A stretch of DNA of 64,000 bases from contig CAZIPS010000002.1 in the NCBI GenBank assembly GCA_964541455.1, forward strand, positions 6,326 to 70,325, read 5' to 3'. The notes beneath the pieces are model-generated. The model had not been told where the DNA came from and ran no database searches. It worked only from the letters and a program-made list of their open reading frames with translations. This document shows, one piece after another, positions 105 through 59,324 of the stretch; position 1 is the first letter of the stretch; each line of letters begins with the position of its first letter. This stretch comes from an uncultured Candidatus Saccharibacteria bacterium (lineage in GTDB: Bacteria > Patescibacteriota > Minisyncoccia > Phycocordibacterales > JAKFXT01). The position numbers and the translations under genes were made by a program.

Positions 105-1550
105 TTAGAATGATTCAACTGAAGTGTTTCCCGCTTCGTTAAAAGCACCGAAATCGTTTTTGTCGATAGAAAGGAAGGTGGTTTTCTTTTCATCATAATA
201 GAGATCTACTTTTCCCGTAGGGCCATTGCGATGCTTTTCTACGAGAATTTCGGCAATGTTTATTTTGTCAGAATCCTCTTTATACTTATCTTCACGATGG
301 ATAAACATCACCACATCAGCATCTTGTTCGATCGAACCTGAATCACGCAAGTCAGAAAGGCGAGGTTTCCCCCCACGTTGCTCAACGGCACGCGAGAGCT
401 GAGAAAGGGCGAGTACTGGCACATCGAGATCGCGTGCGAGATGTTTGAGGGAGCGAGAAAGTTCGGTTACTTGTTGCACCGCTGAATCGGAGTTTCTGGT
501 GTTAATAGGGGTCATGAGCTGAAGGTAATCAACGATAATAAGCCCAAGCCCGTTTTCTCTTTTCATGCGTCGTGCCACAGAGCGCATTTTAAGGATGTTG
601 TTTCCAGGTTGGTCATCGATGGTGATAGGCGCCTTGGAAAGTCGATCAAGTGAGTCACGGATACGATTAAAATCCTCGTCGAGTGAAATATTTCCAGTAC
701 GAAGGCTCCACGCATTCACTCGGGATTCTGCGGCGATCATACGATCAACGAGTTGCTCATTGCTCATTTCAAGAGAGAAGATACACACAGGATTTTTATG
801 CAAGGTTGCAGTTTGTCGAGCGATATCGAGAGCAAGCGCGGTTTTACCCATTGAAGGACGGGCGGCGAGAATGATGAGGTCTGATTTCTGTAGCCCTGCA
901 AGCATATTATCGAGGTCTTTGAACCCTGTTTTGATACCGCGTACTTCATTTTTGTTTTGATGCAGTTTTTCGATACGCTCCCATGCGTCTCCCAATACAT
1001 TTTTGAGTTCAATAAACTTTTTAGACCCGCCTGCATTATTAGTTAGTTCAAAAAGCTGATGTTCGGCTTTTTCAAGAAGCATTTCTACCTCTTCTCCCTC
1101 CTCATACCCCAAATCATTTATGCCTTCAGCAGCCTCAATCAACTTGCGCATCATGAACTTTTTATAAATGATGTCAGCGTAATACTTTATATTTGAAGCG
1201 GACGGCACACTGTTTACCAGATCAGTAAGATACGCAGCTCCACCTACCTGATCGAGATGCCCCTTTTCGCGAAGGCGAGAGGAAAGTGAGAGAAGATCGA
1301 TAGGATCGCTTTTGCTATAAAGCTCGAGCATTGCAGAGAAGATGAGGCGATGTTTTTCAGCGTAAAAACTTTCTGGAGAAATACTATCGATCACATCGAT
1401 CATTGCATCTGGACGAAGCATGATTGCTCCAAGGAGTGCACGTTCGGAATCAATGTTCTGTGGAGGTACTCGTAGGCGAGCCAAATCATAGCGTGTCTGT
1501 TTGTCTTCAAAGCTTTGTTTGAAGTTCTGTTTGTAGTGCTCTTTGGCCAT
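105..1550 (-). CDS. dnaB: replicative DNA helicase DnaB
   Basis: 481 aa; DnaB N-terminal domain (SERALLGAIML), Walker A GKTALALDIA, RecA-like C-terminal domain. Confidence 0.9.
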   Translation of the reverse strand: MAKEHYKQNFKQSFEDKQTRYDLARLRVPPQNIDSERALLGAIMLRPDAMIDVIDSISPESFYAEKHRLIFSAMLELYSKSDPIDLLSLSSRLREKGHLDQVGGAAYLTDLVNSVPSASNIKYYADIIYKKFMMRKLIEAAEGINDLGYEEGEEVEMLLEKAEHQLFELTNNAGGSKKFIELKNVLGDAWERIEKLHQNKNEVRGIKTGFKDLDNMLAGLQKSDLIILAARPSMGKTALALDIARQTATLHKNPVCIFSLEMSNEQLVDRMIAAESRVNAWSLRTGNISLDEDFNRIRDSLDRLSKAPITIDDQPGNNILKMRSVARRMKRENGLGLIIVDYLQLMTPINTRNSDSAVQQVTELSRSLKHLARDLDVPVLALSQLSRAVEQRGGKPRLSDLRDSGSIEQDADVVMFIHREDKYKEDSDKINIAEILVEKHRNGPTGKVDLYYDEKKTTFLSIDKNDFGAFNEAGNTSVESF

Positions 1551-1649
1551 TAGAAGTATTCTACCATGCTCTAAAAAGGGGGAGTGAAGGGGATTTAGGA
1601 GAGATTCGGGGAAAGACTGTGTATAAAGAGAGGGGTTCTGGGGAGGGTA

Positions 1650-1678
1650 TTGCTAAAAGTAGTTTTTTGTTATATAAT
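1650..1678 (+). promoter_or_regulatory. sigma70-like promoter TTGCTA-N17-TATAAT upstream of GC-rich cassette 1
   Basis: TTGCTA at 1650-1655, 17-nt spacer, TATAAT at 1673-1678; spacer contains AGTTTTTTG; 22/29 positions identical to the module at 19618-19646. Confidence 0.4.
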
Positions 1679-1736
1679 AAAGTTCGGTAAGTTTTTTCGA
1701 TTAATTTTTTTGGCCTATGGGCCGAGGAGGTATGGG

Positions 1737-2039
1737 ATGTACAATCCCGACAATGCCAATCCCGACAGGGATACGACCCCGATTGCTCACGTGGAGCGGC
1801 TGGGGGACATCATCCACAGCATGCTCGGGGCGAGGATTGTGTATCGCCCTTGGCAGCTCGCAGGACCTTCTGAGCAGAACGAAATCCTGCTGCAGAAGGC
1901 AGGCGAAATCTGCGTGGTCACCGTGAAAGCGGGAGATCGCCGGCAGGCTTTCGAGGTGAGCAACCTCGGGGCGCAGTTCCTGGCGCTGGTGAAGGTCCTG
2001 AGCCACCAGACCGGGTTCGAGTACCGCGAAGTATTCTGA
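1737..2039 (+). CDS. hypothetical protein, GC-rich cassette 1 (100 aa, MYNPDNANPDRDTTPIAHVERLGDIIHSML...)
   Basis: ATG at 1737 lies 6 nt after GAGGAGG (1724-1730); about 60% GC in a roughly 40% GC neighbourhood; stop lies 16 nt before a hairpin terminator; no family recognised. Confidence 0.55.
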   Translation: MYNPDNANPDRDTTPIAHVERLGDIIHSMLGARIVYRPWQLAGPSEQNEILLQKAGEICVVTVKAGDRRQAFEVSNLGAQFLALVKVLSHQTGFEYREVF

Positions 2040-2054
2040 GGCGGTACTCGGGCG

Positions 2055-2086
2055 AGCGTGCGCAGCGATGCGCACGCTTTTTTTAT
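2055..2086 (+). terminator. intrinsic terminator of cassette 1
   Basis: 9-bp GC stem AGCGTGCGC/GCGCACGCT with 6-nt loop, followed by TTTTTTTATTT; the T-run overlaps the cysS stop codon. Confidence 0.6.
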
Positions 2087-3459
2087 TTCTTACTAACTTT
2101 TACTCCGTCCGGAGTATCATCGATATGATAGCCAAGGTTTGCTATTTCGGTGCGAAGCATGTCAGAGCGGGCAAAGTCTTTCTTTTCGCGCGCCACCTCA
2201 CGTTCTTTGAGAAGGTTTTGTACGGCAATGGGGATTTCAATACTTTCTTCCTCTATTTTTTCATCAAGTCGTAATCCAAGCACTTCATCGAATTTTAAAA
2301 TAGTTGCTTTCTTGTCGGCATCAGTAATGTCTGATTTCAAGACTTCAAATATAAGCGCAAGCGCTTGCGGGGTTCCCAAGTCATCGTTAATGAAAGAAGT
2401 GAATTGGTTGAGGAAATTACTATCTACTTTTCCATCCTCTGGCATCTGCCATAGTGCACGAATAATATTTTTCCTAGCGATACCAGCTGCATTTACTGCC
2501 TCCCAGCTAAAATTCATTGGACTTCTATAGTGAGTGGTGAGTAGTAAGTAACGGTAGACAAGTGGGACATCTCCCTTTTGTACAAAATCTACTAGCGTAA
2601 TAAAGTTCTCACCACTTTTTGCCATTTTATCCTCACCAACGTTTAGATGGGCATTGTGAAGCCAGTAGTTTACATATTTTTTATCATTGGCTTTTTCTGA
2701 TTGGGCAATCTCGTTATTGTGATGTACTGGGATATGGTCGATGCCACCAGTATGAATATCGAATGGTTGTCCTAGGTATTTTTCACTCATAGCAGAACAC
2801 TCTATGTGCCACCCCGGAAACCCTTTACCCCACGGAGCATCATAGCCAAGTTCGGCATTAAATTTCCAAAGGGCGAAGTCGCGCGGGTTTTTCTTTTCAG
2901 CGTTTAGTCCAATACGAGAATGTTCATCATTAGTACTTACTGCACCACCAAGCTCACCGTATGAGGGGAAGCTTTGGGTGTCAAAATATACCCCATCGCT
3001 TGTTGTGTAGGTAGCACCTTTGTCCACTAGCTTTTGAATAAGTTCGATATCTTCTTTGATATGGTCACTTGCAAAAGGGAAGTGGTGAGGTGTCTCAATA
3101 TTTAGTTGTTGTAAGTCTTCCTTAAATTTTTCAAAATAAAAATTGGCTATTTCGCGCATGGCTTCAAGCGTCATGGGTTTACCTTCACGTTTTAGTGCAC
3201 GGGTCATTTTATCATCGCCATCATCCCCATCACTTGAAAGATGTCCTATATCAGTAACATTTATTACTTGAGTTACTTTGTAAGTGTTGAACTCAAGGGT
3301 ACGGCGAAGTATGTCAGCAAACACATAAGCCCTTAGGTTACCAATGTGGGCATAATTGTAGACGGTGGGGCCACAGTTATACATACGCACTTCACCTTCT
3401 TTTATGGGGACAAACTCCTCCTTTTGCTTGGTAAGGGTATTATAGAAAAAAAGCTTCAT
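2083..3459 (-). CDS. cysS: cysteinyl-tRNA synthetase
   Basis: 458 aa; class I HIGH motif (YAHIGNLRAY) and KMSKS (KMAKSGENF); CysRS-like fold throughout. Confidence 0.9.
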   Translation of the reverse strand: MKLFFYNTLTKQKEEFVPIKEGEVRMYNCGPTVYNYAHIGNLRAYVFADILRRTLEFNTYKVTQVINVTDIGHLSSDGDDGDDKMTRALKREGKPMTLEAMREIANFYFEKFKEDLQQLNIETPHHFPFASDHIKEDIELIQKLVDKGATYTTSDGVYFDTQSFPSYGELGGAVSTNDEHSRIGLNAEKKNPRDFALWKFNAELGYDAPWGKGFPGWHIECSAMSEKYLGQPFDIHTGGIDHIPVHHNNEIAQSEKANDKKYVNYWLHNAHLNVGEDKMAKSGENFITLVDFVQKGDVPLVYRYLLLTTHYRSPMNFSWEAVNAAGIARKNIIRALWQMPEDGKVDSNFLNQFTSFINDDLGTPQALALIFEVLKSDITDADKKATILKFDEVLGLRLDEKIEEESIEIPIAVQNLLKEREVAREKKDFARSDMLRTEIANLGYHIDDTPDGVKVSKK

Positions 3460-3496: not shown

Positions 3497-4411
3497 CTAG
3501 AGCCAATTCTTGTGTTTAAAGTAGGTAAACATAAGAATAGTGATACCTATCATAATGCCGATAATCTCGAAAAATCCATACGGACTCCCCACAATAGGGG
3601 TGATGGTGGTATTCATACCAAACACTCCTGCGATTAAGGAAAGAGGGAGCATGATGAATGAGATAAGCGCTAAGACCCGCATAGTTTCGTTCTGTTTAGT
3701 TGAAAGGAGGGAGTCGTTTGTTGCACGAAGCTCATTTAAAGTGTCAGTATTTGCTTCAATAGCGCTCTGTACCCGCGAATAAGAGCCAAGGATAGCTTGT
3801 ATGTAGTAGTTAAAATCTTCGCCAAAAAATTTACGTACAGCAAGTTCAAGTGAGGCGAGCACTTCATCGTGTAGTGAGAGTGATTGCTTGAATTGCAAAA
3901 TTTCCCGCGCGACTTTGGAGAGTTCAAAGACCATCTGGCGTTCATTGCCTAAGAAAATACGGTTCTCAATAATCTTAAGGCGATCGGTGACATAGTCGAG
4001 TTCATGAGTGAGTGACTTATATAGTTTCTTGATCATGTGGAAGAAAATGAAGCCCGCATGGTCGCCTAAACTTTCTTTTTCGAGGATCGTGTTTACTTCA
4101 AATACTTTGCCGAATTTATGTAGGGCATCTATTGAGTCGTAGTGGGTAGTAATCAGAAAATTTTTACCAATGACAAAGTCGATCTCCTGATTTTGGTCAT
4201 CGCCATGGGAATGATGGAGGGCGGGGAAGTGGAGGATAAGGTAGATATAGTCTTTGTAGAGATCAACTTTTGGTTTGAGGCTCGGGGTCATAAGGTCTTC
4301 TGCGACGCGCGGATCAAGAGCATAGCGGCCCATGAGTGTACGCACCTCTTCAAGTGAAGGAGAGGTGAGGTCGATCCATGTTAAATCTTTATTTTTGTAC
4401 TCTTTAATCAT
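3497..4411 (-). CDS. corA: CorA-family magnesium/cobalt transporter
   Basis: 304 aa; C-terminal two TM helices with the GMN motif (VFGMNTT). Confidence 0.8.
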   Translation of the reverse strand: MIKEYKNKDLTWIDLTSPSLEEVRTLMGRYALDPRVAEDLMTPSLKPKVDLYKDYIYLILHFPALHHSHGDDQNQEIDFVIGKNFLITTHYDSIDALHKFGKVFEVNTILEKESLGDHAGFIFFHMIKKLYKSLTHELDYVTDRLKIIENRIFLGNERQMVFELSKVAREILQFKQSLSLHDEVLASLELAVRKFFGEDFNYYIQAILGSYSRVQSAIEANTDTLNELRATNDSLLSTKQNETMRVLALISFIMLPLSLIAGVFGMNTTITPIVGSPYGFFEIIGIMIGITILMFTYFKHKNWL

Positions 4412-8042: not shown

Positions 8043-8070
8043 GTCGGGGTATAGTGTATCGGTAACACAC
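8043..8070 (+). repeat. 28-bp exact duplicate of the tRNA-Pro 5' end (-2 to +26) located 144 bp upstream of the gene
   Basis: GTCGGGGTATAGTGTATCGGTAACACAC is identical to 8185-8212; it diverges at the anticodon stem. Confidence 0.7.
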
Positions 8071-8186
8071 ATGATGGGGGTCGAGCAAGACACAATAAAG
8101 TAAACAGTTTTACTTTATTATGCTAGTGAGACAAATTTTCTCATATGGTTTACCATGAGAAAATTTCGGTTTTTTGGAGGCATCGT

Positions 8187-8258
8187 CGGGGTATAGTGTA
8201 TCGGTAACACACGTGCATGGGGTGCACGTAACGCTGGGTTCGACTCCCAGTACCCCGA
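8187..8258 (+). tRNA. tRNA-Pro (anticodon GGG)
   Basis: Manual fold: 7-bp acceptor CGGGGTA/TACCCCG (C1:G72, A73), D-arm GTGT/ACAC, anticodon stem CGTGC/GCACG with loop ATGGGGT (U33, GGG, G37), variable loop TAACG, T-arm CTGGG-TTCGACT-CCCAG; no encoded CCA. Confidence 0.8.
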
Positions 8259-8287
8259 CGATGGCCCTAAAAAACGTAACTAAAAAC

Positions 8288-19571: not shown

Positions 19572-19617
19572 AATGTATTCTACTATAACGGTTTTGGGCC
19601 GTTCGGGCAATCAGCGC

Positions 19618-19646
19618 TTGCTAAAATGGATTTTTTGTCCTATAGT
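19618..19646 (+). promoter_or_regulatory. sigma70-like promoter TTGCTA-N17-TATAGT upstream of GC-rich cassette 3
   Basis: TTGCTAAAA-TGG-ATTTTTTGT-CC-TATAGT; same module as 1650-1678; a GGCGCGA/TCGCGCC hairpin at 19672-19694 lies in the 5'UTR. Confidence 0.4.
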
Positions 19647-19714
19647 GAAATTTGCTGTAAATTTTGGAAGGCGCGACCAATAAAATTCGCGCCACCACGG
19701 AAAAGGAGGGCCGC

Positions 19715-19978
19715 ATGGCCGCTGAAAAGGGCTGTTGTTGGACGCAGGGCGACAATCGTTGTGTTACGCTCTGCGAGGATGGGCACTGCCCAGGGGGGGA
19801 CGTTTGCGTAACGTCCCAGAGGCACAACGTCAACCACGTCGTTGACTACCCCTACCAGATCCTCCAAAGGGTCATGGAAGAGGGGCGGCCGGGACAGAAG
19901 ACGAAACACAGGCATACTGGGACGGGCGACGGAGACCGTTCTGTCTGGCAGGTGGGCGTCCCTGAAGCTTCATCGTGA
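19715..19978 (+). CDS. hypothetical Cys-rich small protein, GC-rich cassette 3 (87 aa, MAAEKGCCWTQGDNRCVTLCEDGHCPGGDVCVT...)
   Basis: ATG at 19715 lies 5 nt after AAGGAGG; 7 Cys in the first 32 residues; no signal peptide; GC-rich; terminator directly after the stop. Confidence 0.5.
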   Translation: MAAEKGCCWTQGDNRCVTLCEDGHCPGGDVCVTSQRHNVNHVVDYPYQILQRVMEEGRPGQKTKHRHTGTGDGDRSVWQVGVPEASS

Positions 19979-19993
19979 ATGCCCTTCGGGCAA

Positions 19994-20022
19994 GGCTGCG
20001 TACCCCGCAGCCTTTTTTATTA
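19994..20022 (+). terminator. intrinsic terminator of cassette 3
   Basis: GGCTGCG-TACCC-CGCAGCC followed by TTTTTTATTATTT; the T-run abuts the aspS stop codon. Confidence 0.6.
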
Positions 20023-41273: not shown

Positions 41274-41305
41274 AAGTAGTATAGCAAAATATAAAACCCG
41301 TCTTC
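41274..41305 (-). terminator. intrinsic terminator of cassette 4
   Basis: AACCCGTC-TTCAC-GACGGGTT hairpin followed (minus strand) by TTTTATATTTTGC. Confidence 0.55.
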
Positions 41306-41341
41306 ACGACGGGTTCCCTGCGGGGCAGGCAGCCTTGGCGC

Positions 41342-41509
41342 TTAGCTGGCGCGGGTATGCCTTTTCTGGTAGCCACCGTGAGGGGCAGGCAGCCCCCCTG
41401 GCGGCGGGTCGCGCGCCTTTGGCGCGGGCGTGGATTCAAACAGAAATACTGGCCCAGAGAATGCTACGTTAAGTACTGTCTCGATGAGGCAGTACATGAG
41501 ATGTTTCAT
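41342..41509 (-). CDS. hypothetical small protein, GC-rich cassette 4 (55 aa, MKHLMYCLIETVLNVAFSGPVFLFESTPAPKARDPPPGGLPAPHGGYQKRHTRAS)
   Basis: Below the ORF-track size cutoff; found by hand: minus-strand ATG at 41509 lies 7 nt after AGGAGG; hydrophobic N-terminal half, Pro/Gly-rich basic C-terminus; terminator 37 nt after the stop; contains the direct repeat GGGGCAGGCAGCC twice. Confidence 0.4.
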   Translation of the reverse strand: MKHLMYCLIETVLNVAFSGPVFLFESTPAPKARDPPPGGLPAPHGGYQKRHTRAS

Positions 41510-41544
41510 GGTCGCTGCCTCCTCTTGTTTGCAAAACTAAAAAA

Positions 41545-41573
41545 ATAGTAGCAAAAAACTAGTTCTTTTACAA
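41545..41573 (-). promoter_or_regulatory. sigma70-like promoter TTGTAA-N17-TACTAT (minus strand) upstream of cassette 4
   Basis: Minus-strand TTGTAA-AAGAACTAGTTTTTTGC-TACTAT; spacer again carries AGTTTTTTG; the -35 overlaps the ogt stop codon. Confidence 0.35.
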
Positions 41574-56941: not shown

Positions 56942-56969
56942 ATAAAAAAACACCCCGCTTGCGCGGGGT
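56942..56969 (-). terminator. intrinsic terminator of cassette 5
   Basis: CCCCGC-TTGC-GCGGGG hairpin; on the minus strand it is followed by TTTTTTTATA. Confidence 0.55.
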
Positions 56970-56985
56970 AAGCGGGGGTGGCGGA

Positions 56986-57618
56986 TCAGCGTGGTGGCGC
57001 CAGAACAAGCCTGAGGAAATCCTCCATGGTATCGGCGATGAGGCAGCCCATCGCCTCAAGCTGCTCCTTGCTTGGAAAACCGCCGAGGCCGAACTGGGGT
57101 TGCCATTCGCACCCGACGATCACCTTGGGAGGAGGTTCGTCTTCGTTGTCCCGCAAGTTTTCCTTCCGAGCAAGCGCCGTCACGATGTGCAAAAAGTCAT
57201 CAGGGTTGGGCCGAAGGTGGTACTTGCCGGGGTTTTCGAAGTAGTGTGCTGTAAACCAGAAGAGAAAAGTATGGGAGAGTGCCAAGGAGAGCCGCACATT
57301 GCCTGCGTCCTCGATGTCCTTGCGCGGGTCATCATGAAGGAAAAAACTTCCCCGCTCGAGGCCAACGTCCACCACCCCCTTGAACCCAGACAGGGCCCGC
57401 AGGGCGTGATACTGCCATGGGACATGCGTTGGGTCATTGAGAGCATTGATCGGCCCACAAAGGGCCACGCTTCCAAATGCCGCCATGGCATGACTCGAAA
57501 CTAGGTCGAGCTCTTGATGCCTCCAGCGGTAGTGGCCAGTGAGATTGAGGCTCTGCCAGAACTTTTGTACAGCAGCAGCCTTTTCTTGCAACTCTTGCAA
57601 TTCTCCGGGAGCGAACAT
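56986..57618 (-). CDS. hypothetical protein, GC-rich cassette 5 (210 aa, MFAPGELQELQEKAAAVQKFWQSL...)
   Basis: Minus-strand ATG at 57618 preceded by AAGGAA; spans the whole 60%-GC island; terminator 17 nt after the stop; overlapping ORFs in other frames lack translation signals; no family recognised. Confidence 0.55.
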   Translation of the reverse strand: MFAPGELQELQEKAAAVQKFWQSLNLTGHYRWRHQELDLVSSHAMAAFGSVALCGPINALNDPTHVPWQYHALRALSGFKGVVDVGLERGSFFLHDDPRKDIEDAGNVRLSLALSHTFLFWFTAHYFENPGKYHLRPNPDDFLHIVTALARKENLRDNEDEPPPKVIVGCEWQPQFGLGGFPSKEQLEAMGCLIADTMEDFLRLVLAPPR

Positions 57619-57705
57619 CGCTAGTTTCCTTTCATGGGGTCATGGGGGTAATGGGGTACTAAAAGCGAGTTTCACAATAACACGCACTTTAATTTTATCA
57701 AAAAG

Positions 57706-58745: not shown

Positions 58746-58781
58746 AAAATCAAAAAGGAGATAAGGCAGTAAATGCAAAAT

Positions 58782-58810
58782 TTGACTTTATATAATAAGT
58801 AAGTTATAAT
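58782..58810 (+). promoter_or_regulatory. consensus sigma70 promoter TTGACT-N17-TATAAT upstream of cassette 6
   Basis: TTGACT 58782-58787, 17-nt spacer, TATAAT 58805-58810; about 29 nt upstream of the cassette 6 ATG. Confidence 0.5.
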
Positions 58811-58839
58811 TATCCTCAGGCAATTTCAGGAGATTTTTT

Positions 58840-59055
58840 ATGGACTTTTGTCCAGCATGCGGTGGGCTTCTCAAGGAGACCCACCTCTCAGGAAACCTCT
58901 ACGGGTTTTCTCGGCGTGATGCATACAAGTGCAATGACTGCAGCCTTGTCTTGGCACGCGCTAACGGCGGGGCGGTACACTCGGTCACCCCCATCGCACC
59001 AAATGCGGTGGTGATCGAGGGGTACAAGTTGGGGCTCCGTCTCCCACAGGTTTAG
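58840..59055 (+). CDS. hypothetical zinc-ribbon small protein, GC-rich cassette 6 (71 aa)
   Basis: ATG at 58840 lies 7 nt after AGGAG; CPACGG ... CNDC (C-x2-C-x23-C-x2-C) zinc-ribbon pattern; GC-rich; terminator 6 nt after the stop. Confidence 0.55.
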   Translation: MDFCPACGGLLKETHLSGNLYGFSRRDAYKCNDCSLVLARANGGAVHSVTPIAPNAVVIEGYKLGLRLPQV

Positions 59056-59061
59056 TATCAC

Positions 59062-59094
59062 CCCGGGTCGGAAGACCCGGGTGTTTCTTTTTAT
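59062..59094 (+). terminator. intrinsic terminator of cassette 6
   Basis: CCCGGGTC-GGAA-GACCCGGG followed by TGTTTCTTTTTAT; overlaps the atpC stop codon. Confidence 0.6.
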
Positions 59095-59324
59095 ACGAGT
59101 ACCAGAACGCTTTCTTTTGATACTTCAAGCACTCCTTTATTAATTGGAAATGTTTCATTTCCCCCTACCCCACGTACAGTCACTACCCCACTGCGTAAAG
59201 CAGAAACTAAAGGTATATGGTTTTTGAGAATAGTCATTTCTCCTTCACTCCCTGGAAGCGTGACTGAAGTAACTTCGCCATGGAAGAGGACGTCACTAAC
59301 TGAAGCAATGGTGAGAGTGAACAT
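59091..59324 (-). CDS. atpC: F0F1 ATP synthase subunit epsilon (short form)
   Basis: 77 aa; N-terminal beta-sandwich (LTIASVSDVLFHGEVTSVTLPGSEGEMTILKNHIPL); last gene of the atp operon. Confidence 0.8.
   Translation of the reverse strand: MFTLTIASVSDVLFHGEVTSVTLPGSEGEMTILKNHIPLVSALRSGVVTVRGVGGNETFPINKGVLEVSKESVLVLV

Follow-up and report, generated by a model that had tools for sequence, protein, structure and literature searches.

A GC-rich, moron-like single-gene cassette encoding an orphan protein at the cysS–dnaB junction of a Patescibacteria chromosome

Cassette 1 and Its Genomic Setting

The window considered here (the whole stretch of contig CAZIPS010000002.1 that was analyzed, 64 kb in length) is a chromosome segment with a mean GC content of 42.8% (0.428), whose housekeeping genes include dnaB, cysS, corA, an S41 peptidase gene, rplI, a tRNA-Pro gene, scpA, aspS, and the atp operon, and whose DnaB relatives place it in the Paceibacterota, within the Patescibacteria or candidate phyla radiation (CPR). 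Between dnaB and cysS lies a compact unit, hereafter cassette 1 (1650–2086, plus strand), which runs opposite to both genes, convergent with cysS and divergent from dnaB, and in which a gene for a protein of 100 amino acids (aa) is enclosed between a predicted promoter and a predicted terminator of its own. The features of this locus are listed below, L011 and L001 being the two lineages in which orthologs of the gene were found.

105–1550, minus strand: dnaB (Pfam DnaB recorded on orthologs)
1650–1678, plus strand: predicted sigma70-type promoter, with -35 TTGCTA at 1650–1655, a 17-nt spacer, and -10 TATAAT at 1673–1678
1704–1731, plus strand: predicted hairpin of the 5′ untranslated region (5′UTR), in which U1705–U1711 pair with the entire GAGGAGG motif, with a GGCC/GGCC stem and a UAUG loop
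1724–1730, plus strand: Shine-Dalgarno (SD) sequence GAGGAGG, 6 nt before the ATG at 1737; GAGGAG is kept in L011 and L001
1737–2039, plus strand: coding sequence (CDS) of the 100-aa orphan protein, 100 codons plus stop; GC 0.60, GC at third codon positions (GC3) 0.77
2015–2053, plus strand: 3′ hairpin A, a 13-bp stem with core CGAGTACCGC / GCGGTACTCG, enclosing the last codons and the stop codon
2054–2086, plus strand: predicted intrinsic terminator, made of a hairpin at 2054–2079 (11 pairs, 7 of them G-C, loop of 4) and a T-run from 2078
2083–3459, minus strand: cysS (Pfam tRNA-synt_1e recorded on orthologs)

The original prediction, made from the letters of the window, had placed an independent cassette encoding an unknown 100-aa protein between these two genes, a view that synteny, coding signature, and conserved signals all support. 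Its elements lie where it had put them: the TTGCTA-N17-TATAAT promoter, the GAGGAGG motif, and the ATG at 1737 are present, and the open reading frame (ORF) translates exactly as quoted. The final hairpin and T-run are there as well, with the trivial discrepancy that the run, given as T8, reads T7 (2078–2084), A, TTT; it overlaps the cysS stop codon (2083–2085, minus strand). The announced rise in GC at about 1717 and fall at about 2080 are likewise visible, GC per 100 nt going from 0.35 (1651–1750) through 0.54 (1701–1800) to 0.59–0.64 (across 1751–2050) and back to 0.47 (2051–2150).

Conservation and Reading Frame

In a search of 5.8e9 protein clusters, we found only two orthologs of the encoded protein, 94% and 83% identical to it and both exactly 100 aa long. 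The window sequence and these two orthologs are represented on 24 contigs from JGI, NCBI (GCA_964385825.1), ENA, and Logan assemblies, and the gene sits between dnaB and cysS wherever its flanks are visible. The same junctions being found on 24 contigs from four sources, misassembly or contamination is ruled out as the cause of the GC step.

The codons of the window, L011, and L001 align three ways without a gap, and the ratio of nonsynonymous to synonymous divergence (dN/dS, by the Nei-Gojobori method) is 0.107–0.131 for the frame that opens at 1737. By codon position 1, 2, and 3, the differences number 8, 9, and 33 (of 50) between the window and L001, and 5, 2, and 17 (of 24) between the window and L011, when dN/dS ranges from 0.8 to above 1 in both remaining sense frames and, on the antisense strand, in two frames out of three. 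Judged by this coding signature, frame 1737 is the gene and is under purifying selection.

We give almost no credence to the idea that the real gene is read in another frame, be it a 124-aa antisense ORF (1701–2075, minus strand) or a 69-aa frame (ATG 1717 or ATG 1732, end at 1926). The antisense ORF is co-directional with the ancestral cysS–dnaB operon, is open in the three lineages, and shows a dN/dS of 0.16–0.23; however, it is also open in 100% of 3000 synonymous-codon shuffles, and its openness is uninformative because the sense protein sequence alone keeps the frame open in these shuffles, so that we rejected it as a compositional artefact. Moreover, the two frames share their wobble positions, which explains the low dN/dS of the antisense ORF, a value still above that of the sense frame, and this ORF has neither an SD nor a conserved start: the window copy is devoid of Met and offers only a GTG inside the terminator stem, which is not a start in L001. 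The 69-aa frame was rejected too, as it meets in-frame stops in L001 and has a dN/dS of 1.3–2.6, and the preference of the original prediction for frame 1737 over this one is borne out (0.11–0.13 vs. >1). Neither alternative frame has a Pfam match.

Expression Signals

The two promoter hexamers match 10 of the 12 consensus positions and form the sole promoter-like site that a consensus scan detects on either strand within 1400–2300. L011 and L001 have the same two hexamers as the window, when L001 departs from it at 8 of the 12 central positions of the spacer, and it is because of this conservation in two diverged relatives, not because of the consensus match alone, that we regard the promoter as supported. 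The SD, the ATG, and the GGCC-N4-GGCC core of the 5′UTR hairpin are also conserved, although synonymous divergence in the flanking genes approaches saturation. The predicted transcription start lies near 1685, and the sigma70-type promoter would drive an mRNA of ~400 nt.

The 5′UTR hairpin folds at -13.5 kcal/mol (z -3.9; 0 of 200 shuffles equally stable), and its GGCC-N4-GGCC core is identical in the three lineages, with a U-to-C change in the loop. Through the pairing of its U-run with the SD, this hairpin may occlude the ribosome-binding site and thus possibly exert a translational control. Translation from the ATG at 1737 would then yield a mildly acidic, soluble cytoplasmic protein of 100 aa, with neither signal peptide nor membrane segment.

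At the 3′ end, 11 of the 13 stem pairs of hairpin A are invariant in the three lineages, the closing pair at each end of the stem being broken in L001, whereas the terminator stem has no broken pair, but two compensated ones, one turned from C-G to U-A and the other from U-A to C-G, and two with one-sided compatible changes. Folded together (2010–2090), the two hairpins reach -44.9 kcal/mol (z -6.2). This tandem would end, and probably stabilize, the transcript, with the second hairpin acting as a canonical intrinsic terminator that abuts the cysS stop codon on the opposite strand.

Given a whole-transcript folding z of -6.2, strong and conserved 5′ and 3′ hairpins, and a short monocistronic unit with its own promoter and terminator, the functional product could in principle be an RNA (a small RNA or a dual-function RNA), with an ORF that would be secondary or incidental. 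We find this highly improbable, although a dual function is conceivable: the codon-periodic differences (8, 9, 33) and a dN/dS of 0.12 indicate that the protein is what is conserved, and the strong SD and the ATG, which are ideally spaced, are both conserved as well. Rfam gives no family over the cassette 1 region, either at gathering scores or at E up to 10, cis-regulatory families included, and covariation across the three sequences is unconvincing for the helices internal to the CDS, only 2 of ~95 pairs being changed on both sides and several being broken.

An Orphan Protein

The product of frame 1737, which contains the stretch MYNPDNANPDRDTTPIAHVER, is a protein of 11.2 kDa with a pI of 5.9 (range 5.5–6.0) and no hydrophobic segment. 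An AlphaFold2 model built from the three-sequence alignment predicts, with moderate confidence (predicted local distance difference test 69.6, predicted template modeling score [pTM] 0.59), a compact fold of alpha-beta4-alpha-beta topology, in which residues 1–13 are disordered and followed by a helix (15–30), four strands (33–36, 49–55, 58–65, and 68–75), a second helix (80–92), and a last strand (95–99).

Beyond its own orthologs, homology and structure searches found no homolog or family for this protein, which the original prediction had rightly called unknown. An exhaustive HMMER profile scan of 1.84e9 representatives recovered only its own cluster; Pfam, PHROGs, and PADLOC gave 0 matches at E up to 1, and PDB sequences gave 0 at E up to 10; NCBIfam returned only rhamnulokinase, at an E of 0.059 and 11.8 bits against a cut-off of 639; Foldseek retrieved nothing at E <= 1e-3 from PDB and BFVD; and tblastn against phage and plasmid collections yielded no match. 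By these searches, the protein family appears new to databases, and nothing yet points to a new activity. Because it would be a small soluble domain devoid of recognizable motif, our guess as to its role is that of a small non-enzymatic binding or modulator protein, accessory and probably conflict-related, for example in phage or host interaction.

The cysS–dnaB Junction

In other Patescibacteria, cysS immediately precedes dnaB, in the same orientation, at 47 loci, of which 28 are in species-representative genomes and 19 on metagenome contigs, with a gap that is often ~10–80 bp and that is below ~85 bp in at least 14 of the 47. Because the two genes are adjacent and co-directional in these loci, and often closely spaced, their pairing is, by synteny, ancestral, and they are probably co-transcribed. 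It is at this conserved junction that cassette 1 is inserted, and a survey of its presence in relatives, as the original prediction had proposed, places it at the same site in the two orthologous lineages, when 0 of 160 other Patescibacteria loci encode the 100-aa ORF. In the nearest outgroup, L098 (71% DnaB identity), the gap holds a 243-aa nucleotidyltransferase gene, and in other relatives, it is filled by unrelated genes, often on the opposite strand; relatives with a DnaB identity between 71% and 94% were found neither among the species-representative genomes nor in the metagenome collection.

More broadly, the cysS–dnaB junction (L016–L060 and L098–L136) is a recurrent insertion spot across Paceibacterota, with gaps ranging from ~0 to 1.8 kb and occupants that are unrelated to each other, such as nucleotidyltransferase genes of 234–243 aa (L049, L098) or small coiled-coil or membrane ORFs. 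The 231-aa occupant of the L044 junction has a sequence that reads, by eye, as that of a putative Y1/REP-associated transposase. In L056, a distant Patescibacteria metagenome-assembled genome whose DnaB is 53% identical, the cysS–dnaB gap contains a GC-rich island (3500–3925; 0.64 vs. 0.38), which we considered as a comparable cassette and rejected as being of a different kind, namely a hairpin-repeat array with units GAGATTGCTTCG...CGCAATGAC, no convincing ORF, no terminator, and no Rfam match.

That non-coding GC-rich inserts such as the L056 array occur at the same junction in other Patescibacteria is in line with the possibility that the 100-aa gene was born de novo in the clade from a GC-rich non-coding insert (e.g., a degenerate structured RNA or repeat element). 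Such a birth would explain the lack of homologs at any sensitivity and would suit a sequence that is GC-rich, strongly folding, and structured-RNA-like. Nonetheless, we deem it very unlikely in view of the strong purifying selection (dN/dS 0.12), of the compact mixed alpha/beta domain that is predicted (pTM 0.59 from three sequences), and of the complete, conserved set of promoter, SD, and terminator; besides, no non-coding precursor is seen in any relative, and Rfam has no match at E up to 10.

Composition, Tempo, and mRNA Structure

With a GC3 of 0.77 (0.69 in L001), the ORF contrasts with five neighboring genes, whose GC3 is 0.37–0.48 and whose GC is 0.41–0.45, and with the host GC3 of ~0.40. 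Its GC at first and second codon positions is near the host values, and the GC excess therefore lies at the nucleotide level, not in the amino-acid content.

The tempo of divergence is also peculiar. Between the window and L001, 51–53% of the conserved codons differ in dnaB, cysS, and corA, which amounts to ~90% of saturation, when 23 of the 80 conserved codons of the ORF differ, where saturation, given the codon usage of the ORF itself, would bring this number to 39 +/- 4. Expressed as a bootstrapped ratio of ORF to flank synonymous distance, this gives 0.44 (95% confidence interval 0.24–0.79) for L001 and 1.45 (0.71–2.55) for L011. The synonymous divergence of the ORF is out of step with that of its flanks, which may reflect either an exchange of the cassette between the two deep lineages after their split or an uneven synonymous constraint.

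Finally, the CDS is more structured than expected in each of the three orthologs, with a folding z of -2.7 to -3.0 against dinucleotide shuffles and of -2.1 to -2.7 against synonymous-codon shuffles, when twelve host CDS segments give a z of 0.03 +/- 0.83.

Origin of the Cassette

On this basis, we consider it moderately probable that cassette 1 is an autonomous, moron-like single-gene unit that was horizontally acquired and inserted at the ancestral cysS–dnaB junction of a narrow Paceibacterota clade. Under this scenario, a foreign accessory gene would have been inserted between cysS and dnaB, and would then have been retained by purifying selection.

A series of observations weighs against this horizontal acquisition or against the functional reading of the signals. 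The argument for a foreign origin is drawn from composition and phyletic pattern only, with no donor that could be named. Neither mobility gene, repeat, nor target duplication is found at the borders of cassette 1, which is always seen at one site, with no second genomic context. With regard to the signals, shuffles yield 0.8 +/- 1.0 promoter-like sites, such that the consensus match by itself is not significant, and the SD-occluding pairing is strong only in the window sequence, the U-run of L001 being in a different register (z -1.2). Furthermore, the polarized changes in the two close lineages comprise 9 GC-to-AT and 10 AT-to-GC substitutions, in a test that is biased by a distant outgroup. 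Such a balance departs from the prediction of simple amelioration and would be no less compatible with a composition that is maintained than with a foreign relic in decay.

These last counts are also part of the case for a native, vertically inherited, clade-specific gene, whose GC content and mRNA structure would be kept by selection and whose low synonymous divergence from L001 would mirror constraint. We regard such a history as unlikely. It would account for substitutions that are balanced rather than AT-biased, for a CDS that folds beyond both shuffle nulls in three orthologs, unlike the twelve host CDS segments, within a transcript at z -6.2, and for the 23 of 80 codons that differ from L001 where 39 +/- 4 are expected at saturation. 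However, a constant constraint predicts otherwise than an ORF/flank ratio of 1.45 for the closer L011 against 0.44 for L001, and convincing covariation of the internal CDS pairs is lacking. In addition, no outgroup has the gene, the junction there often spanning only 10–80 bp, and a GC3 of 0.77 in a genome of GC3 0.40 has no known native cause.

Further GC-Rich Cassettes in the Window

Cassette 1 is not the only unit of its kind in the window, as four further islands of ~0.60 GC are found at ~19.6–20.0, 41.3–41.5, 56.9–57.6, and 58.8–59.1 kb, each with a promoter-like site or an SD, a small ORF (87, 55, 210, and 71 aa, respectively), a hairpin followed by a T-run, and housekeeping neighbors:

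19609–20020, plus strand: cassette 2, between scpA (minus) and aspS/asnS (minus); GC 0.62
41290–41545, minus strand: cassette 3, between a uracil-DNA-glycosylase-like gene and a 92-aa gene; GC 0.62
56945–57640, minus strand: cassette 4, with a 210-aa GC-rich orphan ORF (56986–57618) and a terminator at 56945–56970
58775–59095, plus strand: cassette 5, with TTGACT..TATAAT, a 71-aa Zn-ribbon ORF (58840–59055), and the terminator CCCGGGTC-GGAA-GACCCGGG

None of these four islands matches an Rfam family, and no repeat is shared among the cassettes of the window. In 1 Mb of other Patescibacteria loci, islands that exceed the local mean GC by 0.15 or more number ~0.28 per 10 kb, against five distinct ones in the 64 kb analyzed here: the pattern is enriched in the window and not unique to it.

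Cassette 2 has the putative promoter TTGCTAAAATGGATTTTTTGTCCTATAGT (19618–19646), followed by a GGCGCG..CGCGCC hairpin, an AAGGAGG motif, and an ATG at 19716, from which a Cys-rich ORF of 87 aa extends to 19978, with a terminator-like hairpin and T-run at ~19995–20020; it has no Rfam match at E up to 1, and the folding z of its CDS is only -0.4. Of all sites in the window, its promoter comes closest to the 29-mer of cassette 1 (22 of 29 positions), a score to be set against a Markov null that reaches at least 21 in 7% of trials, and the likeness of the two promoters is suggestive only. In cassette 3, AGAGGAGG precedes an ATG at 41509 that would open a putative 55-aa ORF, ahead of the terminator AACCCGTCGTGAAGACGGGTTTT, with a CDS folding z of -2.4 and nothing but sub-threshold noise in Rfam.

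The protein of cassette 4 has a single homolog, in a 97%-identical cluster (P0003), and no Pfam, PHROG, NCBIfam, or PADLOC match; at the corresponding site in the L001 lineage, downstream of a 195-aa NAD(P)H-quinone reductase gene, there is an unrelated 363-aa gene. As for cassette 5, whose CDS folds at a z of -4.1, the housekeeping proteins on its flanks are ~85–90% identical to those of the L001 lineage (DNA ~82%), and yet the atpC/75-aa-gene site of that lineage (L097 9186–9550) carries another GC-rich unit (0.61), with its own TTGACA/TATAGT promoter and terminator, that encodes a Zn-ribbon protein of ~86 aa, ~23% identical to that of cassette 5. That this site is GC-rich in both lineages despite a protein identity of ~23% also speaks for selection on composition, as in the native history of cassette 1 discussed above.

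It is tempting, though in our estimation rather doubtful, to see these cassettes as an undescribed class of promoter-to-terminator units encoding orphan mini-proteins, GC-rich (~0.60 in a 0.43 genome), with several unusually structured mRNAs, that would occupy fixed intergenic sites between Paceibacterota housekeeping genes and have genealogies decoupled from that of the chromosome. If such a class were real, it would imply that its members are either replaced repeatedly out of a GC-rich gene pool yet to be sampled (a reservoir of phages or a CPR mobilome) or selected to keep their GC and RNA structure.

Comparison with Known Systems

The closest parallel is with phage morons. In the definition given by “The moron comes of age” (PMC3594210), which follows the Hendrix/Juhala concept, a moron has its own promoter and factor-independent terminator, lies between genes that are adjacent in related genomes, and has a GC content unlike that of its neighbors, taken as a sign of horizontal transfer; most morons consist of a single small accessory gene (PMC3594210). 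Cassette 1 shares three of the four defining features, that is, its own predicted promoter and terminator, its insertion between genes adjacent in relatives, and its deviant GC. It differs from morons in residing in the cellular chromosome of a CPR bacterium, between the essential genes cysS and dnaB, instead of in a phage or prophage, and no phage genes are seen in its 12-kb neighborhood, where the neighbors are recR, dnaB, cysS, corA, an S41 peptidase gene, rplI, and rpmA. Cassette 1 is moron-like, and not a moron.

Like ORFans and genomic islets, cassette 1 is restricted to a narrow clade, sits at a break of conserved synteny, and has an atypical composition. Bacterial ORFans are reportedly more AT-rich, typically, than the genome that carries them, whereas cassette 1 is ~17 GC points richer than its host (~35 in GC3) and combines strong purifying selection with a complete, conserved set of signals.

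Integron cassettes are usually promoterless, end in attC, and are arrayed next to an integrase. The cassettes of the window resemble them as small, mostly single-ORF units of non-host composition, with genealogies decoupled from the chromosome, but differ in having their own promoter and terminator, in being dispersed singly (at 1.7, 19.7, 41.4, 57.3, and 58.9 kb), and in the absence of an integrase nearby. We accordingly rejected an identity as integron gene cassettes, on account of the own promoter, of the absence of any repeat shared between the window cassettes (no search with attC covariance models having been made), and of their dispersed rather than arrayed layout.

Lastly, the predicted pairing of the U-run of cassette 1 with a purine-rich SD just before the start codon is reminiscent of FourU RNA thermometers and other SD-occluding hairpins. 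Cassette 1 departs from them in that it has no Rfam cis-regulatory match at E up to 10 and in that the pairing register differs in L001.

Neighboring Features

A region close to cassette 1 and another farther away in the window deserve mention. The first borders the cassette without belonging to it:

1551–1649, minus strand: upstream region of dnaB

In this region, an extended -10-like element, TGGTAGAAT (1558–1566, minus strand), lies 7 nt before the dnaB ATG, and the arrangement of TGnTAGAAT, 7 nt, and ATG is kept in the window, L011, and L001. An SD is absent from the dnaB start, and because the conserved TGnTAGAAT precedes the ATG by exactly 7 nt in all three lineages, the layout suggests that the dnaB mRNA is leaderless. 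Farther upstream, a 19-nt block, GGGGAAAGACTGTGTATAA (1609–1627), is kept in the three lineages amid an otherwise diverged dnaB upstream region, and its minus strand holds a conserved DnaA-box-like TTATACACA (1618–1626), which fits the pattern TTATNCACA. Across the window, this DnaA-box pattern shows no enrichment, with 4 matches vs. 2.4 expected.

Elsewhere, the window contains a partial copy of the 5′ half of tRNA-Pro(GGG) (8045–8081 vs. 8187–8223; 88% identity over 42 nt), 142 bp upstream of the intact gene (8187–8259), which is the only one that ARAGORN and Rfam call. This partial copy might have been left behind when a small element was inserted or integrated.

Significance

In terms of annotation, what was a raw ORF becomes a well-supported CPR gene with a defined predicted promoter, 5′UTR, start codon, and terminator. 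As far as we are aware, experimental knowledge of the signals of gene expression in CPR bacteria is close to nil. The maintained GC, the excess mRNA structure, the out-of-step divergence, and the sister cassettes lift the finding above a routine hypothetical protein, without making it, as yet, a new kind of system.

What gives these observations their value is less the gene taken singly than the pattern, as a reduced, AT-leaning, symbiont-type genome is found to harbor several GC-rich, self-contained orphans between essential genes. If these orphans were drawn from an exchangeable accessory pool, they would point to an unsampled CPR mobilome and to candidate factors of host or phage interaction. 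If, alternatively, they were shaped by selection for GC and RNA structure, they would represent an unusual maintenance of composition against mutation bias.

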